NCBI GenBank assembly: GCA_965223905.1
Contig: CBDCXV010000010.1
Span: 768,001 to 832,000, forward strand
Length of the DNA stretch: 64,000 bases
DNA from: Candidatus Latescibacterota bacterium
GTDB lineage: Bacteria; Latescibacterota; UBA2968; UBA8231
Reading direction: 5' to 3'
A program made the position numbers and the translations under genes. This document shows, in pieces, positions 24,602-42,870 of this stretch (position 1 is its first letter; each line of letters starts with the position of its first letter). The notes beneath the pieces are model-generated. The model searched no databases and had not been told where the DNA came from. It saw only the letters and a list, made by a program, of their open reading frames with translations.

Positions 24602-26737
24602 TCAGTCCGTGGCCCGGAGCCGCTCGCCGAGGGCAGTGTAGCGCCTGGCGACCTCGTCGTTGGAAATCGCCCTGCCCAGGGCCCTCCTGCCGCCGACGAC
24701 CACCAGCAGGGAGCGGGCGCGCGTGACCGCCGTGTACAGCAGGTTGCGCTGCAGCATCGGGTAATGCTGGGTGGTCAGGGGCAGCACGACGACAGGGAAC
24801 TCCGAACCCTGGGCGCGGTGGACGCTGACGGCGTAGGCCAGCACGATCTCGTCGAGAGAGTTGGCCCCGTACTCGCATGAAACCCCGCTGTCGAAACGCA
24901 CCCGGATCGAGCCTTCCTCGGCGTCGAAAGCGAGTATGCGCCCGAGGTCGCCGTTGAAGACGGCGCGCTCGTAGTTGTTGCGGACCTGCAGAACCTTGTC
25001 GCCGACGCGCAGCTCCCGTTCCCCTTTCCGGCAGACCCTGCCGTCCGGGTTGAGCCGCTGCTGCAGCAGGCGGTTGAGGTTGATGGCCCCGGTCTCCCCC
25101 CGGTACATCGGGGTCAGCACCTGGATGTCGCCGACCGGGTCGTAGTCGCCGTGGGCAGGCAGGCGGCGTCCCACGAGATCGGAGATCGTGGCCGCGGCCT
25201 CCGGGGGATCCTCCTCCTCGACGAAGAAGAAGTCGCCGTCGCGGCTGTTGCTCAGCTCCGGCCAGTCGCCGGCGTTGATGCGGTGGGCGTTGACGACGAT
25301 GCGGCTGCGGCGCTCCTGCCGGTGAATCTCGGTCAGCCGCGCAACCGGTAAGCGCCGGGAGGAGATGACGTCCCCCATGACGTTGCCCGGGCCCACGGAC
25401 GGCAGCTGGTCCGCGTCGCCGACCAGCAGCAGGCGGACATGCGGCGACAGGGCGCGCAGCAGGGCGTGCATCAGCGGGATGTCGATCATCGAGGCTTCGT
25501 CGACGATAACGGCATCGGCTTCGACCGGGTCGTGCCGGCCGCGGCGGAACCTGCCTTCCGCGGGCATGAACTCCAGCAGCCGGTGGATGGTCTTCGCCTC
25601 GCGGCCGGTCGCCTCGGCGAGCCGCTTGGCCGCCCGCCCCGTGGGGGAACAGAGGGCGACCCGCAGGCCCGCTTGCTCGAAGTGGCGGAGGATCACCTGC
25701 GTAACCGTCGTCTTCCCGGTCCCGGGGCCGCCGGTCAGGACCATCACCTTTTCCCGCAGTGCCGTTTCGACCGCCCTGCGCTGACTGGCGCTGAGATCCA
25801 GCTCGGTCGCAGGGTCTTCGCCGAACTCCGCCTCGGCACCTTGGGTTCGCAGCAGCCGTTCCAGGGCCGCGGCGACCTTCACCTCCGCGTGGTAGAGATA
25901 TGGCAGGAAGCAGCGCTCCTGGTCGCGGACGATCTGGCGGTCGTCGTCCAGGGCCTCCAGGGCCGCGGGAAACAGCTCGGCGCCGACCTGCAGAAGCTCG
26001 CTCCCCTTCTCGACGACCTCGGCCTGCGGCAGGAACACGTGCCCCTCCCCGGCCGCGGATTCCAGGAGGTAGCGGATTCCCGCCTGTATCCTCTGCGGTG
26101 CGTCGCCCGCGATCCCCAGCTGCGAGGCGACGGCGTCTGCGGTCACGAAACCGATCCCGTCGATGTCACGCTGCAGCCTGTAGGGGTTCTCGCTCACCTT
26201 CGCGATCGCCTCCTGCTCGTACTTCTGGAAAATCTTCACCGCGGCCGCGGACCCGACACCGTGCGACTGCAGAAAGACCATGGTGTCCCTCATCCGGCGC
26301 TGCCCCGCCCAGGCCCGCGCCAGCATCCCCGCCCGCTTGCGGCCCAGCCCCGGTACCTCGAGCAGGCGCCGGGGATTCTCCTCGAGCACCTTGAGGGTGT
26401 CCCCGCCAAATTGGGCGACGATGCGCTCGGCGAACTTCTTCCCCACCCCCTTTACCAGTCCCGACCCGAGAAACCGCCGGATCCCCTCCTCGGTGGTGGG
26501 AAAGACCGCCCGGCAGGACTCGAGCTTGAGCTGCCTGCCGTACTTGGGATGGTCTTCCCAGGTGCCCGTGACCTCGACGGTCTGTCCCTCAGCAACAGTA
26601 GTCATGACCCCGACCACCGTAATCCCCTCGGATGGCCGTTCCCCTTTTTCTGGCTCCGGCTCGATCTGGGCGATCGTGTAGCCGTTGTCGGGATTGTGGA
26701 AGGTCAGGCGGCGGACCAGGCCGGTCACGGTGTGCAT
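24602..26737 (-). CDS. recD2: ATP-dependent RecD2-like DNA helicase
   Basis: HhH region (GVGKK, PGLG), TGGPGTGKT, DEASM, VGDADQLPSVG, YAVSVHRAQGSE, LYTAVTRA. Confidence 0.93.
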   Translation of the reverse strand: MHTVTGLVRRLTFHNPDNGYTIAQIEPEPEKGERPSEGITVVGVMTTVAEGQTVEVTGTWEDHPKYGRQLKLESCRAVFPTTEEGIRRFLGSGLVKGVGKKFAERIVAQFGGDTLKVLEENPRRLLEVPGLGRKRAGMLARAWAGQRRMRDTMVFLQSHGVGSAAAVKIFQKYEQEAIAKVSENPYRLQRDIDGIGFVTADAVASQLGIAGDAPQRIQAGIRYLLESAAGEGHVFLPQAEVVEKGSELLQVGAELFPAALEALDDDRQIVRDQERCFLPYLYHAEVKVAAALERLLRTQGAEAEFGEDPATELDLSASQRRAVETALREKVMVLTGGPGTGKTTVTQVILRHFEQAGLRVALCSPTGRAAKRLAEATGREAKTIHRLLEFMPAEGRFRRGRHDPVEADAVIVDEASMIDIPLMHALLRALSPHVRLLLVGDADQLPSVGPGNVMGDVISSRRLPVARLTEIHRQERRSRIVVNAHRINAGDWPELSNSRDGDFFFVEEEDPPEAAATISDLVGRRLPAHGDYDPVGDIQVLTPMYRGETGAINLNRLLQQRLNPDGRVCRKGERELRVGDKVLQVRNNYERAVFNGDLGRILAFDAEEGSIRVRFDSGVSCEYGANSLDEIVLAYAVSVHRAQGSEFPVVVLPLTTQHYPMLQRNLLYTAVTRARSLLVVVGGRRALGRAISNDEVARRYTALGERLRATD

Positions 26738-27330
26738 GGCGATCCGCGGAAATGGGGCAGGAGAAGGGCGGGCACCAGGGCTCCGAGCAGGATCCCCGCA
26801 AACAGCTGCGGGACCGTGTGCGCCCCGAGCCGCAGCCGCGCCCAGGCGACGAGGGGAGGGACGGCCAGCAGGGCCCACTGTCCGGCGCCGCCCACCGTCA
26901 CGAGTACGAACACCCCCGCGGCGACCCCGACCGAGTGAATGCTGATCTTCCAGAAGCGGTCGATCACCCGGACAGCGGCCGCGGCCAGGGTTATGGAGGC
27001 GGCGCTCCAGGTCATGGTCCAGGCCGCATCCACGGCCGAGAGAACCAGGAAACCAGTCAGGTAGCAGACTGTTCCCATCAGGAGGATGCGCTGCCTGAGG
27101 ACCGGCTCCGGGTCGTACGCGTCCTCGAGGCCGCGCCGGCGCAGCAGCACCATGACGGCGCAGGGAAGCAGGGTGAACAGGGCGAGGGCGATCCCCAGGG
27201 CCTTCCAGTCGGTCTCGCCTGGACGCAGGATCCCCAGTCCGGCGAACACCCAGACGGCCATGGCCGCCGGACTGAACAGGTGCGACAGAACCCTGGCGAA
27301 CCTGTGCTGCCAGTCGGGGGCTCCGGTCAT
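26725..27330 (-). CDS. PAP2-superfamily membrane protein
   Basis: KISIH and WARLRLGAHT motifs; ~6 TM segments. Confidence 0.7.
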   Translation of the reverse strand: MTGAPDWQHRFARVLSHLFSPAAMAVWVFAGLGILRPGETDWKALGIALALFTLLPCAVMVLLRRRGLEDAYDPEPVLRQRILLMGTVCYLTGFLVLSAVDAAWTMTWSAASITLAAAAVRVIDRFWKISIHSVGVAAGVFVLVTVGGAGQWALLAVPPLVAWARLRLGAHTVPQLFAGILLGALVPALLLPHFRGSPCTP

Positions 27331-27572
27331 GTCTTCCGGACCGGGCACCGGTTTCCTATCCAGAGGGGAAATGGTGGCAAGGGAGTGTCAGGGCCCGCCG
27401 TCGATGAGCGGGAGAACCGGGGACCGCGGGCAGCGGTCGGCGCCGCAAGCGATGCATCGGCGAAGAGACGCGGTTCCTCCCCCTCGTTTTTTAACTTGCC
27501 GCTCGCGGCCGGCGCTCTGAAGTATTCCAGACAATCAGCAGTTCGCAGGCGCCTCGGAATTACAGATCCGCC

Positions 27573-27595
27573 TTTGGCGGATCTGCCGGTATCTC
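27573..27595. terminator. 10-bp perfect hairpin downstream of the PqqD gene (possible terminator)
   Basis: CAGATCCGCC-TTT-GGCGGATCTG; U-tract weak. Confidence 0.45.
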
Positions 27596-27618
27596 CGACA
27601 GGTTCTCCTGCTCGCTTC

Positions 27619-28056
27619 TCACTTATCCCACTTCTTGCCGCTCGAATTTGCCTTGGAATACTTCGGCTTCCGCTCGGAGCTCTCCGCCCCATCGAGGACG
27701 AAGCCGACGAAACGCTTCTGCCCCAGCGTCTTCAGGTACTGCAGCAGCGACACCTCCGCCTCCTTGCGGTCGAGCTTGTACTTGACGCGCAGCTCCTCGA
27801 TCATCTGCCCGACCGAGGTGCGGCCGTTGCACATCTGCCAGATCTCGGTGCCGACTTCGTCGAGAGTGATGGTGCGCTTCCTGGGGACGTAGAACAGCTT
27901 GGAAAGCAGCCGCACCTTCCAGGAGTCGATGCGGGTGACGGTTATGCGGGCCTCGCCGCTTTCCGTCTTATCCCACTGGAGCAGGTCGTTACGCGCCGGA
28001 CGCGAGTTGAGCATCGCCTCGCGCGTCAGCTTCGGTTTCTTGCGGGTGGCAAACAT
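27619..28056 (-). CDS. PqqD family (RiPP recognition element-like) protein
   Basis: ITLDEVGTEIWQMCNGRTSVGQMIEEL...EAEVSLLQYLKTLGQKRFV. Confidence 0.85.
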   Translation of the reverse strand: MFATRKKPKLTREAMLNSRPARNDLLQWDKTESGEARITVTRIDSWKVRLLSKLFYVPRKRTITLDEVGTEIWQMCNGRTSVGQMIEELRVKYKLDRKEAEVSLLQYLKTLGQKRFVGFVLDGAESSERKPKYSKANSSGKKWDK

Positions 28057-28993
28057 AGACGGCGCTCAGGCGGTCGGTGAGGTCGTCGCGCTCCTTTACC
28101 CTCTTGTAAAGGTGTTCGACGACGCAGATGCGGTTCCCCTCCTCGCAGTGCCAGACGAGGGCGTCGAGGTGCTGGCGGGGGCGCGGGTTGAGCAGCGGCA
28201 GGGGCCGCAGCAGTTGGCGCCAACGGCTGCGCGGCCGCCCGGTCACCCGCAGTCCCTGGTGATCCCCCACCCCGGCCTCGGCGACGTCGTAGTTGAAATC
28301 GCGCAGCTGCTTGCGGAAGAAGTTGGGGTACCACTCCTCGAGGGTCGTCGCCTTGAGCAGCATCTGCGCCATGCTGAGGCGCTGAACCCGGCAGCTTTGG
28401 TTCTTCCTCTCGAAGGTCATCTGGATGTTGCCGGACTTGAGCTCGTGCTTGGAGAGGGCGAACTCCTCGGGCACGCAGAAGGACATGCCGTAGACGCTCC
28501 AGTAGCGCATCCTGTCGTCCCTGTGGCAGACGACGGAGCGGAAGACCCGGTCGGCGAGCTCTTCGAGGTTCTCCGTGAGCCGGGCGAGGACGCGCAGCAG
28601 CAGGATGCGCCCGCAGTCGGGACAGGCGCGCGCCAGGTTGTAGGCGAGGTAGTCGGCGCGCCAGGTAAAGGCCTCGTACTCCGCCCCCTCGAGCCAGCGC
28701 TTGTCGCGCAGGAACTTTGCCTGCCTCGTCACCGAGAAGGGAGTGTCCGCCTTCTCCGCTTTCTTCGCCAGCTTGTCGAGGTAGCGCTCTACGAGGTCGG
28801 GGACCGGCATTCTTCGCCCCCGGTCCGGCGTCTCCCGCCATTCGACTTCGGCGCGGACGATCTCGGCGTCGTCGAGACGGGCGTAGCCGCTCTTCGCGTC
28901 GCCGTCGACCTTGCCCAGGTTCCAGTCATCCGGCACGCGCAGACAGATCCCCTGCCATCCGAAGTCCGCCCAATCGACTCCACGGTCAGCCAT
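27989..28993 (-). CDS. Hypothetical soluble protein of the M28-FtsX/OPT/PqqD operon
   Basis: 334-aa ORF with typical codon use; FGWQGICLRVPDDW and WSVYGMSFCVPEEF suggest a two-fold internal repeat; CPDCGR motif. Confidence 0.7.
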   Translation of the reverse strand: MADRGVDWADFGWQGICLRVPDDWNLGKVDGDAKSGYARLDDAEIVRAEVEWRETPDRGRRMPVPDLVERYLDKLAKKAEKADTPFSVTRQAKFLRDKRWLEGAEYEAFTWRADYLAYNLARACPDCGRILLLRVLARLTENLEELADRVFRSVVCHRDDRMRYWSVYGMSFCVPEEFALSKHELKSGNIQMTFERKNQSCRVQRLSMAQMLLKATTLEEWYPNFFRKQLRDFNYDVAEAGVGDHQGLRVTGRPRSRWRQLLRPLPLLNPRPRQHLDALVWHCEEGNRICVVEHLYKRVKERDDLTDRLSAVYVCHPQETEADARGDAQLASGA

Positions 28994-29014
28994 TTGCAAC
29001 GCACCTGTGGCGAA

Positions 29015-31435
29015 TCAGAAGATGAGAACGGAAACCGACTTCTGGATCAGGGCGATGGAGATCGAGGCCATCCCCATGAGCGCCATGCCGCAGGCGAACC
29101 CGACCGCAAGCACCGGCGCGTACAGCCGCCACTCCTTCTTGCCGTACTTGCCCCAGAAATAGTAGCGGGCCAGCATGGCGCCGATGACCTCGGTAATCAT
29201 CCAGTGCGGGATCGTGGTCAGAGCCCGGACGTACCCGAAGACCAGCAGGATCGGCAGGCCGAAAATCGACAGCAGGATGTAGCTCCCCAGGCCGACGATG
29301 GCGCCGGCGGCGATGATGTTCGGCTTGATGGCGCGGAACAGCCACGGCTCGTCGGTAGTGCGCTGGATCCACGGACTGGAGAAGTTGGGGTCGGTGTCGA
29401 GGGCGAAGTAGTACTCCCAGCCCTCGGGAAGCGGTTCGTCGGAACGCACCACCATCTCCGGTCTCGGGGTGCGGACAATGCCGACTTCGGCTGCCGGGGA
29501 GACCGCGGTCACCCCCGGTCCGGTCAGGGCCACCGCCGCTGCGCCCGCATCCGGCACACCCTTCATGGCGCCGGGAGGATGCTCGGGAATCAGCTCCGGC
29601 TCCCCCTCGTCGAAATGGGTGAAGAAGGCCCGCTTCTCCGACCACCGCCCGGCCTGCCCCTGCTTGCCCTTCGACTCGAGCCAGGCGGGGTCGACGGCCC
29701 GCACCCGCCAGTACCACCACTCCCCCTCGACCAGGTTCGCCGGCATCCAGGCCGCTTCGGAGCGGTCGGGCAGGTACTCCATTTCGCTGCGCAGGGTCCC
29801 GGTGAACCAGAGACAGGTCTGCAGAGCCTGAAGCCTCCACATCACCTGGGCGTACGGGTACGACGCCGACGGAATCGGCGCCAGCTTCCAGACGTAGGAC
29901 GAGTACAGGAAGGTGGTGAACAGCACGATCGGCACCATGAAGACCTCGGCCTTGATGATGCTGGTGAAGCGGGTTCCGGTCAGCTCGATTTCGCGAAATT
30001 TCTGGCACTGGTTGCCGTAGTTCCCCAGGGGGAACGGTATGAACCAGATGTCGACCCCCTGGTACCCGGACAGAATGATGGTCGCTTCGCGTACGAACGG
30101 GATGTCGACGCTCTGCCCCACCATGCCGTACAGGCGGGCGTTGACGAACGACTGGAACGGGGTGAAGACGAAGCCGAAGAACAGGAAGAACCAGATGAAG
30201 CTCTTGAACGCCGGCAACAGGAAAGCGGCGATCAGGATCAGGCCGCTCGTGGCCACCGCGTACAGCCCCAGCGCCGTCCACAGCGAAAAATCTCCCCGGC
30301 CCTTCGGGACCTCCCAGCTGCGCCTTACTTCCCCGACCCTGCCTCCGGCATCGCGGGCGCGTATCAGGGCCTGGGCGACCTGGTAGAAACCGATGATGGC
30401 GATCGCCATGGTCGTCCCGATGCCGAAGCTCATCCAGAAATCGACGCTGTTGACGAAGAAGGTCTCGATCGCCCCCATCCCCGGCTGCCAGATCTCCAGA
30501 AGACCGTACTTGTAGAGGAAGGGGTTGGCGATAGAGTGCGCGACGACCCCGAGAAAGGTCCCGATCACCCCCCAGAAGGGGACCACCAGACCGGCGAAGA
30601 TCGGCCCGAGATGGGCGGTGAATCCCAGCGGCGTCGCCGGGATGAAGTTGCCGGTGACCTGGGTGAAGTCTACGAAGGGGATCGGTATCAGCTGGATCGG
30701 CTCGGTGAGCAGGGCGCCGGTGATCGCCGGGATGGCGACGTAGAGGGCGCCGAAGACGAGCCCGATCATCGCTCCTGCGGAAAACACCCGCCAGCGCCAG
30801 GACTCGACCCCCTGGGTGGTCTCGGCCAGCGCCGTGGCCCCCTGGGCCGCTACCGGGGCGAAGGGAAAGGGCAGGCGCTCGTAGTCGGAGCTGACGCGGA
30901 AGAGGGCGTACGCCGCGGTGAACCAGGAGACGCGCGCAATCAGCACGCCGGCGACCAGCAGGGCGATCGGCAGCAGCCAGTCGGAGTGCAGGAAGGTCCG
31001 CTGCAGCAGCGCGGCCGATTCGAGGGGTGGCGCGAACCAGTCGGGAATCAGGTTGGCGATACCGAACTGCTTGGCCGCCGGGGACTGGCGCAGGTACTGG
31101 TTCCACAGCAGGCCCTGGAAGGAGCCGGTCTCGGCGGCGATCAGCCCGGCCGCGACGTAGTAGAGGACGTAGACTTCCTGCTTTCTCAGCGACGAGAAAG
31201 AGCGCTTGGTGATCTCGGCGAACAGGATGATCGTCACCCACTCCGCGGCGGCGCCGAGATTGCCGCCGACCATCAGCCCCAGGTAGATGTTCCCGGGAAT
31301 CATGATGAAGGCGACGAAGAGGACGCCGAGGATCGTCTTGGTCGTAAACCCCTCTTCGAACTCGGTAGGGGTATCGAGAAGATCCCGGTACTCTTCTATT
31401 TCCGCGTTCGGGTTCCTGTCTTTGCGAAACAGCAC
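29015..31435 (-). CDS. OPT-superfamily-like peptide transporter with an inserted soluble domain
   Basis: FEEGFTTKTILG, AAEWVTIILFAE, ERLPFPFAPV, PIPSASYPYAQ; many TM helices. Confidence 0.75.
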   Translation of the reverse strand: MLFRKDRNPNAEIEEYRDLLDTPTEFEEGFTTKTILGVLFVAFIMIPGNIYLGLMVGGNLGAAAEWVTIILFAEITKRSFSSLRKQEVYVLYYVAAGLIAAETGSFQGLLWNQYLRQSPAAKQFGIANLIPDWFAPPLESAALLQRTFLHSDWLLPIALLVAGVLIARVSWFTAAYALFRVSSDYERLPFPFAPVAAQGATALAETTQGVESWRWRVFSAGAMIGLVFGALYVAIPAITGALLTEPIQLIPIPFVDFTQVTGNFIPATPLGFTAHLGPIFAGLVVPFWGVIGTFLGVVAHSIANPFLYKYGLLEIWQPGMGAIETFFVNSVDFWMSFGIGTTMAIAIIGFYQVAQALIRARDAGGRVGEVRRSWEVPKGRGDFSLWTALGLYAVATSGLILIAAFLLPAFKSFIWFFLFFGFVFTPFQSFVNARLYGMVGQSVDIPFVREATIILSGYQGVDIWFIPFPLGNYGNQCQKFREIELTGTRFTSIIKAEVFMVPIVLFTTFLYSSYVWKLAPIPSASYPYAQVMWRLQALQTCLWFTGTLRSEMEYLPDRSEAAWMPANLVEGEWWYWRVRAVDPAWLESKGKQGQAGRWSEKRAFFTHFDEGEPELIPEHPPGAMKGVPDAGAAAVALTGPGVTAVSPAAEVGIVRTPRPEMVVRSDEPLPEGWEYYFALDTDPNFSSPWIQRTTDEPWLFRAIKPNIIAAGAIVGLGSYILLSIFGLPILLVFGYVRALTTIPHWMITEVIGAMLARYYFWGKYGKKEWRLYAPVLAVGFACGMALMGMASISIALIQKSVSVLIF

Positions 31436-31476
31436 TTAGATCCCCTTCGCTCGCTTCCTTCGCCGCGCCTTCCCTG

Positions 31477-34400
31477 TCAGGCCGTTACCTCGGTGCGCTC
31501 ACCAGCGAGGATCTCGACGCCCTGTTGGCGGTACGAGTCCTTGGCCTCGGAGTCGACGGTCCGCCAGATCAGAAACTGCTTGCGGATGACGTTCATGAAG
31601 CGCTGGTTGACCCGCCGCCAGGAGGCATCCTCGCCGCTGAGGCGGCGGATGTCCAGCGATATCGAGTAGATGTTGTGCTCGGATTCCGGGTTGGCCCGGA
31701 TGACGACGTGCTGACTCACCCCGAGGTCGAAGGGCGCCAGCCAGATGTTCATGTCGATCGAGTAACCTTCGCCGTGCTCAGAGTCGAAACGGCTCAGGCT
31801 CGCCCCGTCGGTGTAGAAGGTGCCGATCGACTCTTCGCTGTACGAGTCGAAGTAGCCGATAAGGAATACGCTGAGGCCGACGACTTCGTGCCCGCTGACC
31901 GTGAACGGGAACTCGAAATGCCACTCGTCCCCCGACGGCGGCGGCAGTCGCCACTTGCGGGTGACGTCGGGAACCGCCATCTGCGAGGCCTTGCGGGCCG
32001 GATACGCCGTCGACAGCATGACCACGGCCATCACCAGGATGCAGGACATCACCGCGGACAGCGACGAGTAGTTGAGGGTGAAGCCGGCGACCAGGTCGAA
32101 TTTTATCAGCGTCGTCGCCGTGATCTGCCCGGCGAGGTACCCGGCGACCACGCCGAGGACGGCGTACACGCAGGACTCGGCCATGAACAGCCAGGAAATG
32201 TGGCCCGGGGCCAGTCCGACCGACGAGTAGACGCCGATCTCGCGGAAGCGCTCGTACACGCTCCCCATCATCGTATTCAATACGATCAGGGCGGCGATCA
32301 GGATCGGGATGAACAGGTTGGCCATGCCCGAAAGGGAGGTCATGCCGAGCGAGCTGTAGATGGAGACGCGGATGTACTCGTCCCCCTCTTCCTGAACCCC
32401 GGCGAACAGGGTTACCGCCAGGCGCGACAGGAACTCCTCGATCTCGCTGCGCACCTGCGCGTCCTCGTCCTCGAAGCGGACCGCCACCGACTGCAAGGGG
32501 TTGCCGCTGCCGATGTTGCGCAAAGTGTGGTAGGGAACGATCAGGGTGTTGGCCGGCTCGAGGTGGACGAACGGCTTGATCACGACCTTGGCGTCCTCGA
32601 GACCCTCCTTCTCCCGCTTCTCCTCCTCCGCCATCTCCTGCACCGCCTGGCCCCCGGTGACGGCGAAGTCGGCCGGCGTCATCATCTCGTCGTCGAGATC
32701 CTTCAGCTGCTTCATCTTCTTGGAGCTGATAACCCCGACGATCCTGAACTGCTCGCCGAACACCCGGATCTCGACCCCCTCGCCGGCGTTCACCGCGGCC
32801 AGGTCGACGTCGAGCTTGTCCTGCGTCGCACCGATCATGTCGTTGGGAATGATGCAGACCTTCTCCTCACCGGGCCGGAACCAGCGCCCCGCCACCAGGG
32901 CGCGGTCGAGGCCGGTGATCTCGCTCTCCAGCGGCGTCAGGCCGAGCACCCCGAGGGCGTTATGCTCGCCGACGCCGCGCTTCATCTTGATGTGGGCCTT
33001 GGTCCTGTTGTCGTACCAGTTGCGCGGCGCCACCAGGGCGCGGTCGCCGAAGTGACTGAGGGCGTACTCGTACACCGACTCCTCGAGAGGGGTCCAGGCC
33101 TTGCTGCGGATCATGATCCCCTCGTATAGGCCCTCGTTGTCGCGCTCGATCTGGTTGAAGCGCAGCGAAGTCTGGATCGACGTGAAGGAGAGCACCGTGA
33201 AGGTCAGCAGCAACAGGGTCGTGAAGGTGAGAACGGTGCGCAGCTTGCGCCGCTTCATGTTGGAAATGCCGAGCAGAAAGGCGGTCAGGGAGGCACTGGA
33301 GCGGGATACGTCGGTGTCGTGGATCACCGCCACCTCGGTGCGCAACTTCTTCATCTGCTCGTTGAAGCGGCCCGATATGAGCCAGATGACGAGCACCGCC
33401 AGCGCCAGGATCACGAAGGCGAGCAGGATCACGAAGGGATTGGAGAGCTGGAACGCCGGGTGCACCAGCGACAGGACGATCCAGATGACGATGAAGATGC
33501 ACCCGAATCCCAGAATCTGATTCTTGATCGTCGCCGCGGTGATCAGCAGGCGCTCGGCGAAGTAGGCGCAGGGCAGGACCAGAGCCATGAAGAAGATGAT
33601 GCCCCGGATGACGTCGTTCTGCGTCGCCTTGACGTCGGGATAGGCGCGCGATTCCAGGCCGATGGCGGCGCGGGTGTACTTGACGAAGTCCCCCCACTCC
33701 TTCGATGCCAGCGCCCGCTCCGCCTTTTCGAGCTCCGCCCCGGCGCGATCGTGCAGGGCGTTGAGGCGCTGGTTCTCGATGGCGAAGCTCTTCAGCTCCC
33801 GCATGCGGGCTTCGTCGAGATTCCACATGTCCCTGGCGGAGCGGTACGAGGTGCGCGAGAACGAGGTCCCGGGCTGGATCGCGAACCCGGCGCCGAGGGC
33901 GCGGTCCTTGTCGTCGGCCGACTCGGAGTTGAGCAGCAGGGAACGGAACCCGAGGATGCTGGCGCCGAAGCCGAGCTTGACGATGGTCCCGGGGCGGGCG
34001 AAGAGCACCCCCACCGGCTCGTTCCTGGCGGAGGGGCCCTCGCCGATGGTGTAGCCGTACTCGACCGGGGTCGTGTTGGTTTCGTCGAAGATCGTCACCT
34101 GCGATAGCTTGGTGAGGTAACGCGGGTCGACGATGTCGAAGAAGTTGAACGACTCGCACGGAAACAGCACAACCATCCACTGCTTGTCGCGCCAGTCCAT
34201 GGAGATCTTCATCGGGTAGGACCCGTCCCCCTGCTCGCCGCGGTCCGGCGCGTAGGTGACCTCGCCGGTGGCCGGGTCCATGAAGTACCCCTCGATCTGC
34301 ACGGAGTTGACGCGGATGCGGTTGTCGTAGAAGGCGCCGTCGGAGTCGACCACCTCGAAGTGTTCTCCCCGCACCCCCTTGTAGGACTTTTTCTTGCCGT

Positions 34401-36261
34401 TGCGGACAGAGGCTACCGCCCCGGGCCGCGCCAGGTCGGGAACGATGCTGCGCCTCGGGAAGACCATCGTCCTGCCCTTCAGGGTGCGCATGGTGTCCTT
34501 CAGGCGCATCTTGAAATCGGGAAACAGCTCCGGGTCCTCGAAGGCCATGTGGAACATCCCGGCCAGCGCCCTGATCTGGCGCGCCAGGTTCTCGTGGTTG
34601 ACCTCGAAGGCGCGGTCGAGCGGGGTGTCGGCGAGGAAGCGGGCGTCGTTCACGGTGACGAAGGCCAGGGCCGGCGTGCCGGTGTCGAGCACGAGCTCGC
34701 TGTTAACGGAGATCTCGCCGGGAACGAAGGTTTCCCAGCTCTTGCCGCCCTCCGGGCTGATGCCGTTGACGAGGATGTCGCGGTCGTCGTACCCCAGCTC
34801 GCGGCTCAGAACACGGGCGTACGACATGAAGTTCTTGCCGAAGGGAGCGAAGTAGCGCTTGTAGTAGAAGCTCGTGTTGCTGTTCCAGACGCCGAGCTCG
34901 TCGGTCTGCGTCGACAGGTCCAGGCTGACGAACAGTTTCACGCCGAGGGAATCGACCTTGGGATCGACCCATTCCTTGTAAAAGGCGAGCCTGAGGTCCT
35001 CGTCGTCGGCTAGCTCCGCTTCGAGCTTCTCGAGGCTGGAGAAGGATTCATCGGCGACGACGAAACGGTCCCCTTCGCGCCGCACCGTGTCCTCCTCCTC
35101 GAGGGCGGCCTTCAGGACGGAACGGACCAGGATCGTGTCGTTGTCGGCGATCTCACGGATCAGTCCCTCCTTGCCGTGGAACTCGAGACTGCCCAGCCGG
35201 TAGGTGACCCCCTCCGACTCTATCAGGCCTCTCGCCAGCGCCGCCTCGACGACCCTGCGAACGACCATGCGATCGATGAACGGGTCTTCCTTGCGCAGGT
35301 AGCGCTGGATGAAATCGTCTACGCCGCGAAGGGCGAGATGGTGCGCCGACGTCGCCAGAAAGACCACGGTCCGCGAGGGCGGATTGTCGCGGAAGTACCT
35401 TGCGAGCTCGAGCAGGGCGGCGATGCCGGCCGCCTGCTCGGCGCCCGGAGCCAGCGCCGGCACCACCGACATGGCGTCGTAGTACGACTCGAGGACGATG
35501 GTGTCCTCTTTGAGGAGCGGGTCGTACCCCGGAATGGCGCCGAGGATGTTCCAGGCCGGCCGGCGTTCCCAGTCCATGCGGTATTCGAGGTGCACCGGCA
35601 GGGACCCGCCCTCCTCCAGCGGCCCGCGCAGGTGCTCGGCGTCCTCCTTGGCGATCCAGAAGCGCGGCATGTCGAGCGGCATGGTGAGGAATTTCTTCTC
35701 CCCCTCGAGATAGACCGTCGAGTCCGGCTCGGCGAAAAGAATCGCCTCGGCGCCGAGGTAGGCACAGTTGAGCCAGTTGTCGCCGGAGTTGAACTCGAGG
35801 AGGACTACCGAACCCTCGATGTCGGTGCCGGAGAGTTCGGGGAATTCCCCGGTGCCGCCGTACACGAGCTTCGCGTCGATGCCGCCGTCCGGAAGCGTGG
35901 AGGTGCGCACGAGGTTGGGCCACAGGCCGTGAATCGCGAAACGCCCGGCATCTTCTCCGGCGACCTCGAGGAATCCACCTTTCTCTACCGGGATCGAGAT
36001 GTCGTACTTCTGAAAGGAGATCCCGTCCAGCCCGATGTCGCGGAACTGCTGCTGGATGTAGAGTGCGGCGGCTTCGGCGCCGGGGTACCCGGCGACGCGC
36101 GAGCCGAGACCGGAGAGATACTGCACGGTTCCTTCGAGACGATGCTTCGGGGCCAGCCGCTCGAGCGCCCTGAAATCGACTTCCGCGTACAGGGGCGGGC
36201 TCGACCCCAGGATGGCGCTGCCTAGTAAAGCCGTGAGCGCGCTGACGGGTCGTATTCTCAT
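31477..36261 (-). CDS. Fusion of a degenerate M28-peptidase-like domain and an FtsX/MacB-like permease (1594 aa)
   Basis: Signal peptide; SRVAGYPGAEAAA, NILGAIPG, ALLELAR (M28 fold); GISNMKRRKLRT and VLNTMMGSVYERFREIGVYSSVGL (FtsX/MacB). Confidence 0.8.
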   Translation of the reverse strand: MRIRPVSALTALLGSAILGSSPPLYAEVDFRALERLAPKHRLEGTVQYLSGLGSRVAGYPGAEAAALYIQQQFRDIGLDGISFQKYDISIPVEKGGFLEVAGEDAGRFAIHGLWPNLVRTSTLPDGGIDAKLVYGGTGEFPELSGTDIEGSVVLLEFNSGDNWLNCAYLGAEAILFAEPDSTVYLEGEKKFLTMPLDMPRFWIAKEDAEHLRGPLEEGGSLPVHLEYRMDWERRPAWNILGAIPGYDPLLKEDTIVLESYYDAMSVVPALAPGAEQAAGIAALLELARYFRDNPPSRTVVFLATSAHHLALRGVDDFIQRYLRKEDPFIDRMVVRRVVEAALARGLIESEGVTYRLGSLEFHGKEGLIREIADNDTILVRSVLKAALEEEDTVRREGDRFVVADESFSSLEKLEAELADDEDLRLAFYKEWVDPKVDSLGVKLFVSLDLSTQTDELGVWNSNTSFYYKRYFAPFGKNFMSYARVLSRELGYDDRDILVNGISPEGGKSWETFVPGEISVNSELVLDTGTPALAFVTVNDARFLADTPLDRAFEVNHENLARQIRALAGMFHMAFEDPELFPDFKMRLKDTMRTLKGRTMVFPRRSIVPDLARPGAVASVRNGKKKSYKGVRGEHFEVVDSDGAFYDNRIRVNSVQIEGYFMDPATGEVTYAPDRGEQGDGSYPMKISMDWRDKQWMVVLFPCESFNFFDIVDPRYLTKLSQVTIFDETNTTPVEYGYTIGEGPSARNEPVGVLFARPGTIVKLGFGASILGFRSLLLNSESADDKDRALGAGFAIQPGTSFSRTSYRSARDMWNLDEARMRELKSFAIENQRLNALHDRAGAELEKAERALASKEWGDFVKYTRAAIGLESRAYPDVKATQNDVIRGIIFFMALVLPCAYFAERLLITAATIKNQILGFGCIFIVIWIVLSLVHPAFQLSNPFVILLAFVILALAVLVIWLISGRFNEQMKKLRTEVAVIHDTDVSRSSASLTAFLLGISNMKRRKLRTVLTFTTLLLLTFTVLSFTSIQTSLRFNQIERDNEGLYEGIMIRSKAWTPLEESVYEYALSHFGDRALVAPRNWYDNRTKAHIKMKRGVGEHNALGVLGLTPLESEITGLDRALVAGRWFRPGEEKVCIIPNDMIGATQDKLDVDLAAVNAGEGVEIRVFGEQFRIVGVISSKKMKQLKDLDDEMMTPADFAVTGGQAVQEMAEEEKREKEGLEDAKVVIKPFVHLEPANTLIVPYHTLRNIGSGNPLQSVAVRFEDEDAQVRSEIEEFLSRLAVTLFAGVQEEGDEYIRVSIYSSLGMTSLSGMANLFIPILIAALIVLNTMMGSVYERFREIGVYSSVGLAPGHISWLFMAESCVYAVLGVVAGYLAGQITATTLIKFDLVAGFTLNYSSLSAVMSCILVMAVVMLSTAYPARKASQMAVPDVTRKWRLPPPSGDEWHFEFPFTVSGHEVVGLSVFLIGYFDSYSEESIGTFYTDGASLSRFDSEHGEGYSIDMNIWLAPFDLGVSQHVVIRANPESEHNIYSISLDIRRLSGEDASWRRVNQRFMNVIRKQFLIWRTVDSEAKDSYRQQGVEILAGERTEVTA

Positions 36262-36445
36262 GCGCTTGGGAAGATGGTTTGTCGGAGGCCTTGCGAACGA
36301 ACGCGGAGGTTGTGGAGCGTTGCCGATCTTTCGGTCAGATGCCGCTCGGGATTCGGATTTCTGTGCCGGCTCAACCGCACAAATAAAGGAGAATAATCCT
36401 TTCAGGCAATCGCAAACGAATCCGACGCCCGTGCCGCCGTCACCG

Positions 36446-36958
36446 TCAGCTCCATTCGAGGCGGCGCAGGCGGGCGGCGCACCAGTGGGCGATCAGGCCG
36501 ATGGCGAAGCCGGTGACCAGCCCCGTGAGCATGAACAGCGGCAGGAAGTCGAGCAGGCCGGCGTGATGGAGGTAGACCCGGGCGATCAGCAACTGTGTCA
36601 GCTGGTGGGTGACAGCTCCGAGAACGCTGACGCCCACCAGGCTGAAAAGTCCCGGAGTCATCCGGTGGGCCAGCGCCATGGCGGCGACGCTGGCGATTCC
36701 GGCCCCGCCGCCGATGGCGAAAGCCGGACTGGCGAAACCGCCGCTCACCAGGCCGCCGGCAACGATCTTCACCACGGCGACCGCGATGGCCGGACCCCCC
36801 CCGAAGAGCTCGAGGGCGACGACGACGGGAAGGTTCCCCAGCCCCAGCTTCATCCACGGGAGGGGCCGGGGGGCCACGGCCTCCAGCAGGAACAGGATCA
36901 GCCCGGCGCCTGCGAGCAGTCCGAGCCGCGTCAGCTCCCTGGCGGACATCGAGGGCAT
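36446..36958 (-). CDS. Gx transporter family membrane protein (heptaprenyl diphosphate synthase component I-like)
   Basis: LEAVAPRPLPWMKLGLGN, GVSVLGAVTHQLTQL. Confidence 0.85.
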   Translation of the reverse strand: MPSMSARELTRLGLLAGAGLILFLLEAVAPRPLPWMKLGLGNLPVVVALELFGGGPAIAVAVVKIVAGGLVSGGFASPAFAIGGGAGIASVAAMALAHRMTPGLFSLVGVSVLGAVTHQLTQLLIARVYLHHAGLLDFLPLFMLTGLVTGFAIGLIAHWCAARLRRLEWS

Positions 36959-36962
36959 CCGC

Positions 36963-37364
36963 TCAGCCGCTGAAGGCGTCGACGCCGCCAGGCCGCCTGG
37001 AGGGGGCCTCCCCCCGCAGCAGCAGCACCATCCCGTTCGGCACGCAGGCGGCGATCTCGCCGGTCCGCCCGATCCACCCGGTGAGGACGCAGATCCGGTT
37101 GCGGCACCCGGCTTCGGCGAAGCGGGCGGCGCCGTCGCGGATTTCGATCACCACCTCCCCGCTGCGGCCCTCCTGGACGTGCCTCCCGTCGCTGTCCAGT
37201 GGAAAGACCGCCACCTCCCTGCCCTCTACCTCGACAACGGCGAAAGCCGCCTGGACAGCCGGCGGCTGCCGCCATGCCGCCAGCAAGGCTCCGGCGGCGA
37301 CGGCCAGCATCAGGGCGACGTCCCCGGCGGTCAGTATCCTCCTCAGTTCGAACCAGTCTCGCAT
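36963..37364 (-). CDS. NusG domain II-containing protein
   Basis: N-terminal TM; IEIRDG..RF.EAGCRNRICVLTGWI...ACVPN. Confidence 0.85.
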   Translation of the reverse strand: MRDWFELRRILTAGDVALMLAVAAGALLAAWRQPPAVQAAFAVVEVEGREVAVFPLDSDGRHVQEGRSGEVVIEIRDGAARFAEAGCRNRICVLTGWIGRTGEIAACVPNGMVLLLRGEAPSRRPGGVDAFSG

Positions 37365-37550
37365 GCTCGGCAGGCTTACCGGAAATGGCTGTGATTCGCG
37401 CTCGGAATAATGTACGGGCGGAGCCTTGCGGTCCACCCGATCTCCTTTGCTCACGGGCGGCGTAACCTGTTGTTCCTGTTCATTATGCGGTACTTCCCCC
37501 TTTGTCGGGCGACCCCGGTTCGGTATATTGAGAGTCGACGGAAAGATTCC

Positions 37551-39876: not shown

Positions 39877-40250
39877 CAGCAGTGTCCCGTTGTCGACGGA
39901 TGGCTTTTCTGTAAGACCTCGATTTGGTTGACGTTACGCAACTTAATCGGTGGAATCGACTTGAAATGGTCTCGTTATTCGGGCCCTCCCTCCTCGGCTA
40001 TTCACAAGGAAAGGCCCATGTACAAAGGACGCTTCGTCTTTTCCCACCTCATGGAATTTTTCCCGTTCCCCGCCTTTCGACAATGTGTTCAGCGGGACCG
40101 GGGCCATTACAAGGTGCATCGGTTCTCCTGTCAGGATCAGTTTCTCTGCATGGCGTTTCCCCAACTGACCGGTCGCCAAAGCCTGCGGGACACCGAAACA
40201 TGCCTCCGGGCGCTACAGCCCAGACTTTACCATGTCGGCATTCGCCCAAC
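39877..40250 (+). mobile_element. Truncated IS4-family element (left end + DUF4372 N-terminal transposase fragment)
   Basis: From ATG 40018: MYKGRFVFSHLMEF...FSCQDQFLCMAF.QLTGRQSLRD.ETCL...LYHVGIR, then similarity ends; IR-like CAGCAGTGTCCCGTT at 39877. Confidence 0.75.
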
Positions 40251-40433
40251 GTTCCGCTATTATGTAACACCATCCGCATCACCGTCCCAACTTTACTCAA
40301 TCCTGCATCGTTGAGGACGTCTGCCCTCTTTCCTCCTTTCCGGGGGCCATCGCGACAGCACACTCCCTAATCGCCGCATACGGAAGGGGCGCCCCTTAGG
40401 CAATCCGACCCCCCGTCTCGGTCCCCTACCCAG

Positions 40434-40462
40434 TTGACACCCAGGCGATTGATTTCCACATT
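40434..40462 (+). promoter_or_regulatory. Putative sigma70 promoter upstream of the DUF3800 gene
   Basis: TTGACA (40434-40439), 17-bp spacer, CACATT. Confidence 0.5.
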
Positions 40463-40467
40463 ATTCG

Positions 40468-40540
40468 CAGCAATCGCAGATCGCCGACCCCGTCGTGGGC
40501 GGCAGACCCTATGGCCACCATTCGGTGGCCATAGCCATTT
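40468..40540 (+). ncRNA. Candidate structured RNA/leader upstream of DUF3800
   Basis: Hairpin GCCG-A-CCC/GGG-CGGC, then 11-bp perfect hairpin CTATGGCCACC-ATTC-GGTGGCCATAG followed by CCATTT. Confidence 0.4.
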
Positions 40541-40550
40541 CAGGGGGTAG

Positions 40551-41390
40551 ATGAAAGCCTGCTTTATCGACGAGGCAGGGGACCTCGGAGCACTCGCCAA
40601 TCCGCCGCAACCCAACGACCAACCGGTTCTGGTCATTGGCGGTCTTTTTGTAGATATCGCAAACCTCCACAACCTCACCGACAACCTCCTGAACCTGAAA
40701 AAGCGGTACTTCCCCGGCCTTCCCTATCCGTCCGCCAAACATCTGGATCGCATCTTGCCTGAGATCAAAGGGGCCGACGTTCGCAGCAACGCAACACGTG
40801 GAACCGCGCGGCAGCAGCGGCACGCCATCAGCTTCCTCGACCGAATCCTCGGACTACTGCAACAGTACGATGCAAAGCTGGTTGCACGCATTTGGGTGAA
40901 GGGCATTGGATTGCCTTTCGATGCCACGCCTGTCTACACATCCTCGATTCAAGGAATCTGCACCTATTTCAATCACCACCTGACCCAGACCAGTGAAAGC
41001 GGCATCTGTATCGCTGACAGCCGGAACAAATTCAAGAATGTCAACGTCTCCCACTCCATCTTTACGAAAAAGTTCAGCCCGGTAGCCCAGAGCTACCAAC
41101 GGATCGTTGAGCTGCCGACCTTTGGGCACAGTGATAACCACGCCGGCCTTCAAGTCTGTGACATCGTCTGCTCTGCGCTGCTCTACCCCATCGCCTGCTT
41201 TGCGTATTGCGCGGGTCACGTGAGCAACGTCCATGTACAACCCGGTGCCGCAAGGCTCCTGAAGCGTTACGGGCAGCAACTGAAGGACCTCCAATACCGC
41301 TACCAGGATACGGTGACCAACCGTTACCAGGGCGGACTCGTGGTCTCGGACGCCATCCTGCAACGGAATGGCTCGCTAATGTTTCGCTGA
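40551..41390 (+). CDS. DUF3800 domain protein (RNase H-like fold)
   Basis: N-terminal FIDEAGD, PEIKG, C-terminal SDNHAGLQVCDIVCS (QxxD). Confidence 0.85.
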   Translation: MKACFIDEAGDLGALANPPQPNDQPVLVIGGLFVDIANLHNLTDNLLNLKKRYFPGLPYPSAKHLDRILPEIKGADVRSNATRGTARQQRHAISFLDRILGLLQQYDAKLVARIWVKGIGLPFDATPVYTSSIQGICTYFNHHLTQTSESGICIADSRNKFKNVNVSHSIFTKKFSPVAQSYQRIVELPTFGHSDNHAGLQVCDIVCSALLYPIACFAYCAGHVSNVHVQPGAARLLKRYGQQLKDLQYRYQDTVTNRYQGGLVVSDAILQRNGSLMFR

Positions 41391-41423
41391 AACAGGATCG
41401 ACAAGCCTACACCACCCGGGCCA

Positions 41424-41738
41424 ATGCCGACCCGCCGAGATGAGTTTGCGGACGAATTAAGGACCCGAGTACCGACAATTGATGCTGTTTTCGACGCACC
41501 AAGTGTCATCGCGCCCTACCTTCTTTGCTCAGGACATCAACTCGTACCTTCAGCGATCCGGAGTCCTGAGTCGATGTGGACTACCACTGAGATACTGCGA
41601 CAACTGTATAACTTCAGTGTAATTGGAATGTTCGAAACACCGACTTCCAAATCACCTGTCTTCAAGTACAAAAACCCAAGGCTTGAGCTTCGGTCGAAGA
41701 CCAGACTTTCCATCCACTATGGGTGCGCCCAGCTTTAG
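41424..41738 (+). pseudogene. Probable 3' remnant of a larger accessory gene (winged-helix-like tail of a P-loop ATPase)
   Basis: AT-richer; EILRQLYNFSVIG...FKY...IH pattern; no convincing start. Confidence 0.3.
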
Positions 41739-41823
41739 AGATGGTAAGCCGCAGATGAAGCCACTGCCGAATAATAAATGGCAAAATTGGTTTTTCTGAT
41801 GACCCGTTAGGACGTTGCGAACC

Positions 41824-42870
41824 GTGCCAGCCGATCCGTTCCTTCCCCACATCCGCAGCATGGAGGGGTACGTCCCCGGCGAGCAGCCCGGAGACGGGGA
41901 GTTCCTCAAGCTCAACACGAACGAAAACCCCTATCCGCCGTCAGACCGGGTAATCGCCGCGCTGCGGGCCGCCTGCGACGGCAACCTGAAGCGCTATCCC
42001 GACCCGGACGCCGTCGCCGTGCTCGCCAAGCTGTCGGAGAGGTTCGGTCTGCCCGCCGAACAGATCGCCATGGGGAACGGCTCCGACGAGCTGCTCAACG
42101 CCGCCCTGCGCTGCTTCGCCGGCCCGGGGCAGCCGGTGGCCATCCCCTTCCCGACCTACCCCTACTACCAGAAGCTGATCGACCTGCAGAACGCCGACGC
42201 GATCCGCTGCGACCTCGACGACGACTTCGGGATCCCCGCCGGCTTTCCCCCCGCCGACGCCCGCCTGACCCTGCTGGCCAACCCCAACTCTCCCACGGGG
42301 ACCGCGGTCGCCCCCGGCGCGGTCGAGGAGATGGCGAGCCGCACCCGGGGCGTGCTCCTGGTCGACGAGGCGTACGTCGATTTCTCCGACGGCGGCTGCA
42401 TCGACCTGGTGGAGCGCTACCCCAACCTGCTGGTGACGCGCACGATGTCGAAGTCGTTCTCGCTGGCCGCCCTGCGCATCGGGTTCTGCTTCGGCCCGCC
42501 CGACCTTATCGCCGGGATGCGCAAGGTGCTCGACCACTACAACATGAACGCCCTGTCGCAGGCCGCGGCGGCCGCGGCTCTCGACGGCATCGAGGAGATG
42601 CGGGCCAACGCCGCCCGCATCAGGAGGACGCGGCAGCGGCTGACCGAAGCGCTGCGCGGTCTCGGCTTCCGGGTATGGGACTCGGAGGCGAACTTCGTGC
42701 TCGCGCGCATCGAGTCCCCCCCGGCCGAGGAGCTGTACCTGGGGCTCAAGGAGCGCCGCATCCTGGTGCGCTGGTTCAGCGAGCCGCGCCTGCGCGACTG
42801 CCTGAGGATATCGGTCGGCACCGACGCGGAAAACGAACGGCTGCTGCGCGAACTGGCGGAGCAGCTGTAG
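41824..42870 (+). CDS. hisC: Histidinol-phosphate aminotransferase
   Basis: YVPGEQP, KLNTNENPYPPS, GNGSDE, NPNSPTG, DEAYVDF, RTMSKSFSLAALRIG. Confidence 0.95.
   Translation: MPADPFLPHIRSMEGYVPGEQPGDGEFLKLNTNENPYPPSDRVIAALRAACDGNLKRYPDPDAVAVLAKLSERFGLPAEQIAMGNGSDELLNAALRCFAGPGQPVAIPFPTYPYYQKLIDLQNADAIRCDLDDDFGIPAGFPPADARLTLLANPNSPTGTAVAPGAVEEMASRTRGVLLVDEAYVDFSDGGCIDLVERYPNLLVTRTMSKSFSLAALRIGFCFGPPDLIAGMRKVLDHYNMNALSQAAAAAALDGIEEMRANAARIRRTRQRLTEALRGLGFRVWDSEANFVLARIESPPAEELYLGLKERRILVRWFSEPRLRDCLRISVGTDAENERLLRELAEQL

Follow-up and report, generated by a model that had tools for sequence, protein, structure and literature searches.

A conserved membrane system of Latescibacterota that combines an FtsX-type permease with a predicted OPT-superfamily protein and a PqqD-type protein

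ATP-binding cassette (ABC) transporters of type VII such as MacB, LolCDE, and FtsEX serve in lipoprotein release, in the expulsion of periplasmic substrates, and in the switching of cell-wall hydrolases. The characterised members of the oligopeptide transporter (OPT) family work alone as proton symporters, and bacterial proteins of the OPT superfamily are, to our knowledge, almost uncharacterised. PqqD-type domains have their known roles elsewhere, in the maturation of peptides, and the Mog1/PsbP fold is one usually seen in binding and chaperone proteins and not in enzymes. We know of no type VII ABC system that includes an OPT-fold permease or a protein of the recognition element (RRE) type found in pathways for ribosomally synthesised and post-translationally modified peptides (RiPPs). 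Here, we describe four genes, named A to D, that combine these known families in an arrangement that we did not find described. They lie in a high-GC stretch of 64,000 nucleotides (the window; contig CBDCXV010000010.1 of assembly GCA_965223905.1, positions 768,001 to 832,000) from the 7.9-Mb genome of a Candidatus Latescibacterota bacterium, assembled in 11 contigs and called G000 below. A encodes a peptidase-like extracytoplasmic head fused to a MacB/FtsX module, B a putative OPT-like permease, C a protein modelled as a tandem of Mog1/PsbP-like domains, and D a PqqD-type protein. Together, A-B-C-D are the core of one conserved and undescribed membrane system of Latescibacterota.

We scanned one genome per species and obtained 79 loci around relatives of B, all of them in Latescibacterota-like metagenome-assembled genomes. 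The close loci, in which B is 67-96% identical, number 44: every one of them has A, 43 have C, and 42 have D, with the gene order unchanged, and a missing C or D coincides with a contig end. The tiny gaps between the genes and a C/D overlap of 60-70 nucleotides are conserved across 42-43 of these 44 loci. A gene for a DUF6785/DUF6784 protein directly precedes A in 14 of the 44, not in the window. Three loci carry B-C-D without A, and the 32 more distant ones (B 53-61% identical) all read DUF6785-A-B, with no C-D within 10 kb. Altered operons also occur among the relatives: 6-9 kb separate A from B at L033 and L035, about 2 kb separate B from C at L027, and at L014 B is duplicated in tandem.

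A preliminary description of this DNA, made from its letters alone, had read the four genes as one multi-component membrane system, which agrees with the synteny at the close loci and in three distant families (f7, f9, and f12). It had also pointed out that no ABC ATPase, radical SAM enzyme, or precursor peptide is encoded nearby. Our scan of the locus neighbours confirmed this, finding no ABC ATPase, no radical SAM enzyme, and no conserved small open reading frame (ORF) among them. The lack of an ATPase from the machine as such, which this description implied, was not supported, because the ATPase is part of the operon in those three families. We sampled 121 genomes across the phylum with a profile of C and took 20 loci around C from other families. 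The five complete operons, which fall in f7, f9, and f12, continue past D into a gene for a small FtsX protein and one for an ABC ATPase. The order is DUF6785-A-B-C-D-small FtsX-ABC ATPase in L107, L110, L111, and L112, and A-B-C-D-small FtsX-ABC ATPase in L099; a further locus, L113, ends at a contig edge. Within this phylum, the search of gene neighbourhoods for missing partners that the preliminary description recommended was successful for the ATPase and the small FtsX, and a conserved short peptide gene was not found.

The small FtsX proteins are 229-237 residues long, match the Pfam FtsX family (1.9e-18 for a protein of 229 residues), and have almost no periplasmic domain. They are homologous to the FtsX module of A, with about 30-38% identity over 113-126 residues. 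The operon ATPases score best with the LolD, MacB, DarD, DevA, and FtsE models, which represent the type VII class, all of them under the equivalog cut-offs. G000 holds an orthologous pair on another contig (C1:853469-854992), in which the small FtsX (C1:854282-854992) is 58% and the ATPase (C1:853469-854200) 77% identical; the next-best ATPase of the genome is only 55% identical, which makes this a clear orthologous pair. Anthranilate-synthase and glycosyltransferase genes are the neighbours of this pair. Since the ATPase belongs to the operon in relatives and both partners have orthologues in G000, the puzzle of an FtsX module without an ATPase is one of gene location, not of mechanism. In the lineage of the window, the genes of the small FtsX and the ATPase have been relocated to a different contig, and the locus has no DUF6785 gene. 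We take the full system to comprise seven genes, encoding a DUF6785/DUF6784 polytopic protein, A, B, C, D, the small FtsX, and a LolD/MacB/FtsE-class ATPase, and an architecture with this ATPase acting in trans is highly probable. An ABC ATPase is also encoded further upstream of DUF6785-A-B at some of the more distant loci; as a cognate motor of these A-B loci it was set aside, being present in only 14 of the 32.

The components are widespread in the phylum. Of the 121 genomes, 102 have a match to C, 107 to the B family, and 101 to the small FtsX, and all three are missing from each of the 13 genomes of family f10, which are 64-97% complete. Genomes with C or the small FtsX nearly always carry just one copy of it.

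The 1594-residue product of gene A starts with a signal peptide, followed by the PA/M28-like head, an extracytoplasmic part of about 450 residues, three extra transmembrane (TM) helices, the MacB/FtsX module, and a tail of 165 residues. It matches Pfam FtsX (PF02687) over residues 1317-1428 at 55.2 bits (cut-off 25.5) and M28 at 32.5 bits (cut-off 21.3), the latter over model positions 1-78 of 193 only. MacB_PCD (PF12704) scores 20.5 bits over residues 1021-1200, under its cut-off of 27, and is among the precomputed assignments of many close homologues. Sequence matches in the PDB are MacB (5lil, E 3.3e-10, residues 1240-1428) and the aminopeptidase YwaD (6hc6, E 2.1e-8). A short cytoplasmic linker leads into the module, which consists of TM1, a putative periplasmic core domain, and TM2-4; we infer that the three extra helices return the chain to the cytoplasm ahead of it. 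Residues 437-880 gave no PDB sequence match at E up to 1 and no usable match in a protein atlas, and the tail (residues 1430-1594) gave no Pfam match and no PDB sequence match at E up to 1.

The alignment of the head with YwaD shows substitutions at those metal-binding and catalytic positions that can be aligned: Y260 stands for the histidine, E275 for the aspartate, and H307-H308 for the two glutamates. The last two M28 metal ligands lie outside the alignable part. Depending on the position, 113-121 of the 121 family members in the alignment share the replacement; being conserved family-wide, the replacements indicate that the head has been remodelled and has not decayed. Judged by its catalytic residues, it is predicted not to be a working M28 peptidase.

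B has no Pfam or NCBIfam match, and no Pfam family, including OPT (PF03169), was reached even at E 10; its profile found nothing among PDB sequences at E up to 1. A structure model built from 26 sequences (predicted local distance difference test, pLDDT, 66.7) gave barley Yellow Stripe 1, a member of the OPT family, as best Foldseek match (7wsr_A, E 8.9e-5). VIA-align superposed B on this chain with Z 16.9 over 400 aligned residues (root-mean-square deviation, rmsd, 4.9), and the next chain reached Z 6.3. Sequence links lead the same way. With E up to 1e-3 as the limit, the B profile retrieved 1145 representative clusters. Of the relatives tested (n=21; E 1e-68 to 1e-248, mostly 615-660 residues long), 13 reach the Pfam OPT cut-off of 25.8 bits, a 14th scoring 23.9 bits. 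These shorter relatives lack an immunoglobulin (Ig)-like beta-sandwich that is inserted in B, and they match B in two stretches flanking it. At its other end, B has a conserved N-terminus (residues 1-30) that is predicted to be cytoplasmic. By fold and transitive sequence links, and not by a direct Pfam match, B appears to be a divergent polytopic permease of the OPT superfamily. A query of the protein atlas with B returned only its own Latescibacterota cluster, automatically named "Peptide transporter family protein."

C has no Pfam family match, and its homologues (n=144) carry no Pfam domain; the names shown for them are all "hypothetical protein." The model of C is of high quality (pLDDT 90, predicted template modelling score 0.85) and consists of two tandem Mog1/PsbP-like domains, at residues 8-159 and 161-320. 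Foldseek matched it to Tli4/TplEi, PsbP, Mog1, and SciW, and VIA-align to PsbP, BT_1490, Apa, Mog1, and DcrB with Z 11-13, 22 chains reaching a Z of at least 8. The domains have the form of an alpha-beta-alpha sandwich, and their matches include 2xb3 (Z 12.9, 139 aligned, rmsd 3.3) and 3hlz (Z 13.0, 133 aligned, rmsd 3.7). A search for fused forms of C found none of at least 589 residues, which is weak evidence. D matches Pfam PqqD at 49.7 bits (cut-off 23.4, E 4.6e-13) over 62 of 67 model positions and stays under the NCBIfam equivalog cut-offs for pyrroloquinoline quinone (PQQ; 31.1 vs 46), lasso (32.2 vs 80), and GeoRSP (32.0 vs 100) proteins. Its basic N-terminal extension is conserved in an alignment of 19 sequences. 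A Kyte-Doolittle scan found no hydrophobic helix in C or D, and both are accordingly taken as cytoplasmic; their genes are inherited together. No RiPP precursor or modifying enzyme accompanies D among the window neighbours or in the Pfam-scanned loci of relatives. A complex prediction of C with D scored 0.03 (mark 0.32), which speaks neither for nor against binding.

With these assignments, most of the preliminary reading of the individual proteins is upheld. The non-canonical, M28-like extracytoplasmic domain is supported by the YwaD alignment and its conserved replacements, the OPT-like nature of B by fold and transitive links in place of Pfam, and the cytoplasmic PqqD-type nature of D by its Pfam score and the lack of a TM helix. 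The third gene, which had been called a hypothetical, turned out to encode the tandem Mog1/PsbP-fold protein.

Genes related to A occur repeatedly in G000. Its seven A paralogues each adjoin a gene for a large polytopic protein. This protein is B-like at three of the loci, belongs to DUF6785 at four, and to UPF0182 at one; both B-like and DUF6785 partners are present at two. Across all loci seen to hold A, B or a related permease is encoded with it (7/7 paralogous loci in G000 and 76/76 related ones). Some paralogues lie near genes for a TonB-dependent receptor, ExbD, an extracytoplasmic function (ECF) sigma factor, or glycoside hydrolase (GH)-like or sugar-oxidoreductase proteins, and none of those in G000 has an adjacent ATPase gene. 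Apart from A itself, these paralogues are the six at L088-L093 (contigs C10, C11, and C1), the UPF0182 partner being at L088. The genome also encodes an orphan LolD/MacB-class ATPase (C11:833622-834374), between UvrB and a short-chain dehydrogenase and without an adjoining permease, which might serve the A paralogues as a second motor.

DUF6785/DUF6784 proteins are even more numerous, with about fifty paralogues in G000 (58 matches). The 20 that we sampled (L116-L135) adjoin GH-like proteins, aldose epimerases, GFO/IDH/MocA oxidoreductases, and peptidases, as well as CHU_C-tailed secreted proteins with galactose-binding domains and FG-GAP/ASPIC proteins. This suggests that DUF6785 is a large uncharacterised family of nutrient permeases. 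The catabolic-looking surroundings favour an uptake role for the OPT-like partners, as circumstantial evidence. The DUF6785 profile found nothing among PDB sequences at E up to 1, and pairwise BLASTP showed no similarity between B and DUF6785. At L133:4052-5014, a group II intron reverse transcriptase/maturase adjoins a truncated DUF6785 gene.

In the best reading of these data, which we hold tentatively, an OPT-fold permease is coupled to a mechanotransducer of the type VII ABC class, and C-D form a module that binds peptides in the cytoplasm. In this assembly, the FtsX module of A would pair with the small FtsX as LolC does with LolE, and two copies of the ATPase would bind beneath this pair. 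ATP hydrolysis would then move the periplasmic head of A through the membrane by mechanotransmission, and the head may capture a peptide-like substrate in the periplasm or hand it over. B would carry the substrate over the inner membrane, and C-D might bind either the substrate or the cytoplasmic tail of A or B, in a receiving or regulatory role. Uptake of peptide-like nutrients is the most likely direction and role, and we put it forward with similar reserve; passages of two reports describe characterised OPT members as proton-coupled importers (PMC9131082, PMC12831333). A more specific version, in which an ATP-driven MacB/Lol-type mechanotransducer gates or feeds the OPT-fold channel and the PqqD-type and Mog1/PsbP tandem proteins act as its cytoplasmic receptor, would make the system a hybrid primary/secondary transporter; we regard it as possible and rather doubtful.

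Several observations weigh against this picture. The ATPase is tied to the system by gene order in five complete loci from three families and by one shared absence. That joint absence of C, the B family, and the small FtsX from f10 is a single evolutionary event, supportive and not decisive. At 9 of the 20 C-centred loci (f2, f3, f4, f6, and f11), C-D lie apart from A-B amid housekeeping genes, so that C-D may serve something broader than A-B, and at 5 of the 20 (f5, f8, and f14) D was not detected beside C. A PqqD-type protein would, by analogy, fit export or maturation better than uptake. The contacts between the components are predicted ones. The model of B is of middling confidence, and its most conserved stretch, residues 190-292, is poorly modelled; the link of B to DUF6785 is weak as well (hhalign probability 58.6%, E 9.5e-5, N-terminal 200 residues).

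The alternatives differ in what they leave to the permease and to the motor. In an export or maturation machine, C and D would hold a ribosomal peptide or protein segment, B would move it outward, and the head of A would trim or expel it in the manner of MacAB. PqqD-type domains are known as leader-peptide binders, and D matches PqqD and, weakly, the lasso and PQQ chaperone models; the fold of C resembles the chaperone and immunity proteins SciW and Tli4. Furthermore, type VII ABC systems are presented in passages of PMC5985334 as acting on periplasmic substrates and not in import. However, the locus and its surroundings contain neither a precursor gene nor a modifying enzyme nor a conserved small ORF, the characterised OPT members import, and the A and DUF6785 paralogues stand in catabolic-looking contexts, and we consider export unlikely. 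A different role would follow if the motor transported nothing and, as a regulator, moved the pseudo-peptidase head so as to activate a periplasmic enzyme or a process of the envelope, or to bring it into place, with B, C, and D as accessory or regulatory proteins. FtsEX acts in this way through EnvC, which itself has a degenerate peptidase domain, and the head of A keeps the M28/PA scaffold and not the canonical catalytic set. A single-copy system that is near-universal in the phylum, genomes of 1-2.6 Mb included, and C-D genes that often lie amid housekeeping genes (LexA, DprA, NADH dehydrogenase subunits) would suit such a regulator. Without transport, though, the constant company of an OPT-fold or related permease has no easy explanation, and the locus encodes no conserved hydrolase partner; this makes a purely regulatory function improbable.

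Two further explanations would do away with the motor or with the system itself. The FtsX module might have lost its ABC partner and work with a proton-driven OPT-fold protein alone, in keeping with the lack of an ATPase within 10 kb in the window or at the 44 close loci and beside the seven A paralogues. Against this, the operon itself contains the ATPase and small-FtsX genes in three other families, and single-copy orthologues are kept in G000 and in 101 of the 121 phylum genomes, with the same absence from f10, so that an ATPase-independent machine is very improbable. That the four genes are chance neighbours has some appeal where C-D lie apart from A-B, as in several families; given the shared order, the tiny gaps, and the C/D overlap at 42-43 of the 44 close loci, and the same order again in f7, f9, and f12, we give this next to no credence. 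The coupled mechanotransducer and OPT-fold permease, working in uptake, remains the reading that we prefer.

The features of the locus are listed in Table 1. As the preliminary description had it, the four genes are co-oriented, closely spaced, and followed by a strong hairpin. A and B are 41 nucleotides apart, B and C 15, and C and D overlap by 68. Third-position GC is 0.87-0.89 in all four genes vs about 0.65 overall. The hairpin behind D folds at -28.8 kcal/mol (z -4.97), and none of 200 shuffled sequences folded equally well; it has no T tract and is not on the list of the terminator scan. Terminator-like sites are not commoner in the window than in shuffles (7 vs 5.9), and the promoter scan found no sigma-70-like promoter. 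The hairpin upstream of A sets the Gx-transporter gene apart from an AT-rich stretch that precedes A.

Table 1. Features of the A-B-C-D locus, in positions of the window
Feature	Position	Strand	Basis or remark
Gene A	31477-36261	-	ORF, 1594 aa; GC3 0.89
PA/M28-like extracytoplasmic head of A, residues 37-325	35287-36153	-	YwaD alignment including PA insert
Three extra TM helices of A, residues ~884-962	33376-33612	-	Kyte-Doolittle scan
MacB/FtsX permease module of A, residues ~1007-1428	31978-33243	-	Pfam, MacB 5lil
C-terminal tail of A, residues 1430-1594	31480-31974	-	Probably cytoplasmic, from the predicted topology
Gene B	29015-31435	-	ORF, 806 aa
Ig-like beta-sandwich insert in B, residues 546-694	29354-29800	-	VIA-align rows, Z 5-6
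Gene C	27989-28999	-	ORF, 336 aa
Gene D	27619-28056	-	ORF, 145 aa
11-bp hairpin, 33 nt past the D stop codon	27562-27586	-	Likely transcription-unit end
Terminator-like hairpin past the upstream Gx-transporter gene	36423-36439	-	Terminator scan and sequence read

Contigs from metatranscriptomes (four runs of a single study, with the label sponge metagenome) overlap 26-28 of the 30 bins into which positions 27500-36500 were divided, and most of them are at least 99% identical to the locus. They span the junction of B with C (28835-29442) and that of C with D (27954-28460); among the contigs listed, none covers the A/B junction, a gap that speaks neither for nor against transcription there. This coverage is consistent with expression of the locus; carry-over of DNA is possible in these libraries. 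The near-identical contigs in sponge-metagenome runs also hint at a sponge-associated habitat.

Downstream of D lie genes for a membrane protein of 207 residues without a family and for RecD2. The former (26725-27348, minus strand) has six predicted helices and is syntenic in most close loci; neither Pfam (E up to 0.001) nor NCBIfam (E up to 1e-5) gave a match to it. Upstream of A are a Gx-transporter (Hpre_diP_synt_I)/NusG_II pair (36446-37400, minus strand) and a divergent RelA/SpoT gene. The pair keeps its place upstream of A in close relatives and lies outside the system in distant families. In tblastx and blastn searches with the three intergenic stretches, syntenic matches came from the near-identical genome L001 alone, the remaining tblastx matches being few, weak, and non-syntenic (E 4e-4 to 9e-3). 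At positions 40000-42000 of the window, GC drops from about 0.65 to 0.56.

The preliminary description knew of no experimental characterisation of such a system, and our literature searches agree. In the library searched, no paper names DUF6785 or DUF6784 (PF20581, PF20580) or links Latescibacteria with FtsX. Among the matches listed, none joins PqqD with FtsX or MacB, and none joins Latescibacter (with any ending) with the OPT family or oligopeptide transporter. Latescibacterota are a candidate phylum without a cultured model, and a system that is near-universal and single-copy, with seven A copies and about fifty DUF6785 proteins in one genome, probably bears on how these bacteria feed. The B branch, with its fixed set of partners, offers a handle on the function of bacterial OPT proteins. 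The locus also illustrates how a "missing partner" can be resolved through distant relatives. If the hybrid transporter is true, an RRE fold would be used in transport and not in maturation, in a kind of transport machine that has not been described in any organism.

Compared with known proteins, each component is familiar in outline and unusual in detail. Residues 37-325 of A align with the PA-domain M28 aminopeptidases of the YwaD type, including the PA insert, but three of the alignable metal or catalytic positions are replaced, conservedly across the family, and the Pfam model is covered at 78 of 193 positions. C has two domains that superpose with Z 11-13 each on the Mog1/PsbP proteins (PsbP, Mog1, DcrB, Tli4/TplEi, Eag/SciW). 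Unlike these, it has no detectable sequence similarity to them, is predicted to be cytoplasmic, and is tied to a PqqD-like gene, with no type VI secretion system or photosystem context. D has the PqqD domain (62 of 67 model positions) in common with PqqD of the PQQ pathway and lasso B1 proteins; it differs from them in its basic N-terminal extension, in lacking a radical SAM enzyme, a lasso protease/cyclase, and a precursor, and in having the Mog1/PsbP tandem protein C as its fixed partner. B resembles the OPT/Yellow Stripe-like proteins (PF03169; 7wsr) in its modelled fold and is linked to them in sequence via the relatives of 615-660 residues, but it has no direct Pfam OPT match, carries an Ig-like insert of 150 residues, and is encoded with an ABC motor.

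Taken as a whole, and as far as sequence allows a comparison, the system would work most like a type VII ABC transporter (MacB, LolCDE, FtsEX). Its departures from that family are considerable. The permease A is fused to a PA/M28-like head of 850 residues and has three extra helices and a tail of 165 residues, the partner FtsX is almost without a periplasmic domain, and an OPT-fold permease is always co-encoded. No analogue of MacA/TolC, EnvC, or LolA was seen at the loci, and in G000 the ATPase gene is unlinked. What the system shares with the family lies in its core: A carries the four-helix FtsX module of these transporters and, less clearly by its Pfam score, their periplasmic domain in the segment that separates TM1 from TM2, and the ATPase is of the LolD/MacB/FtsE class. 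The second, unlike FtsX suggests a heterodimer in the style of LolC/LolE, for which mechanotransmission is the likely mode of action.

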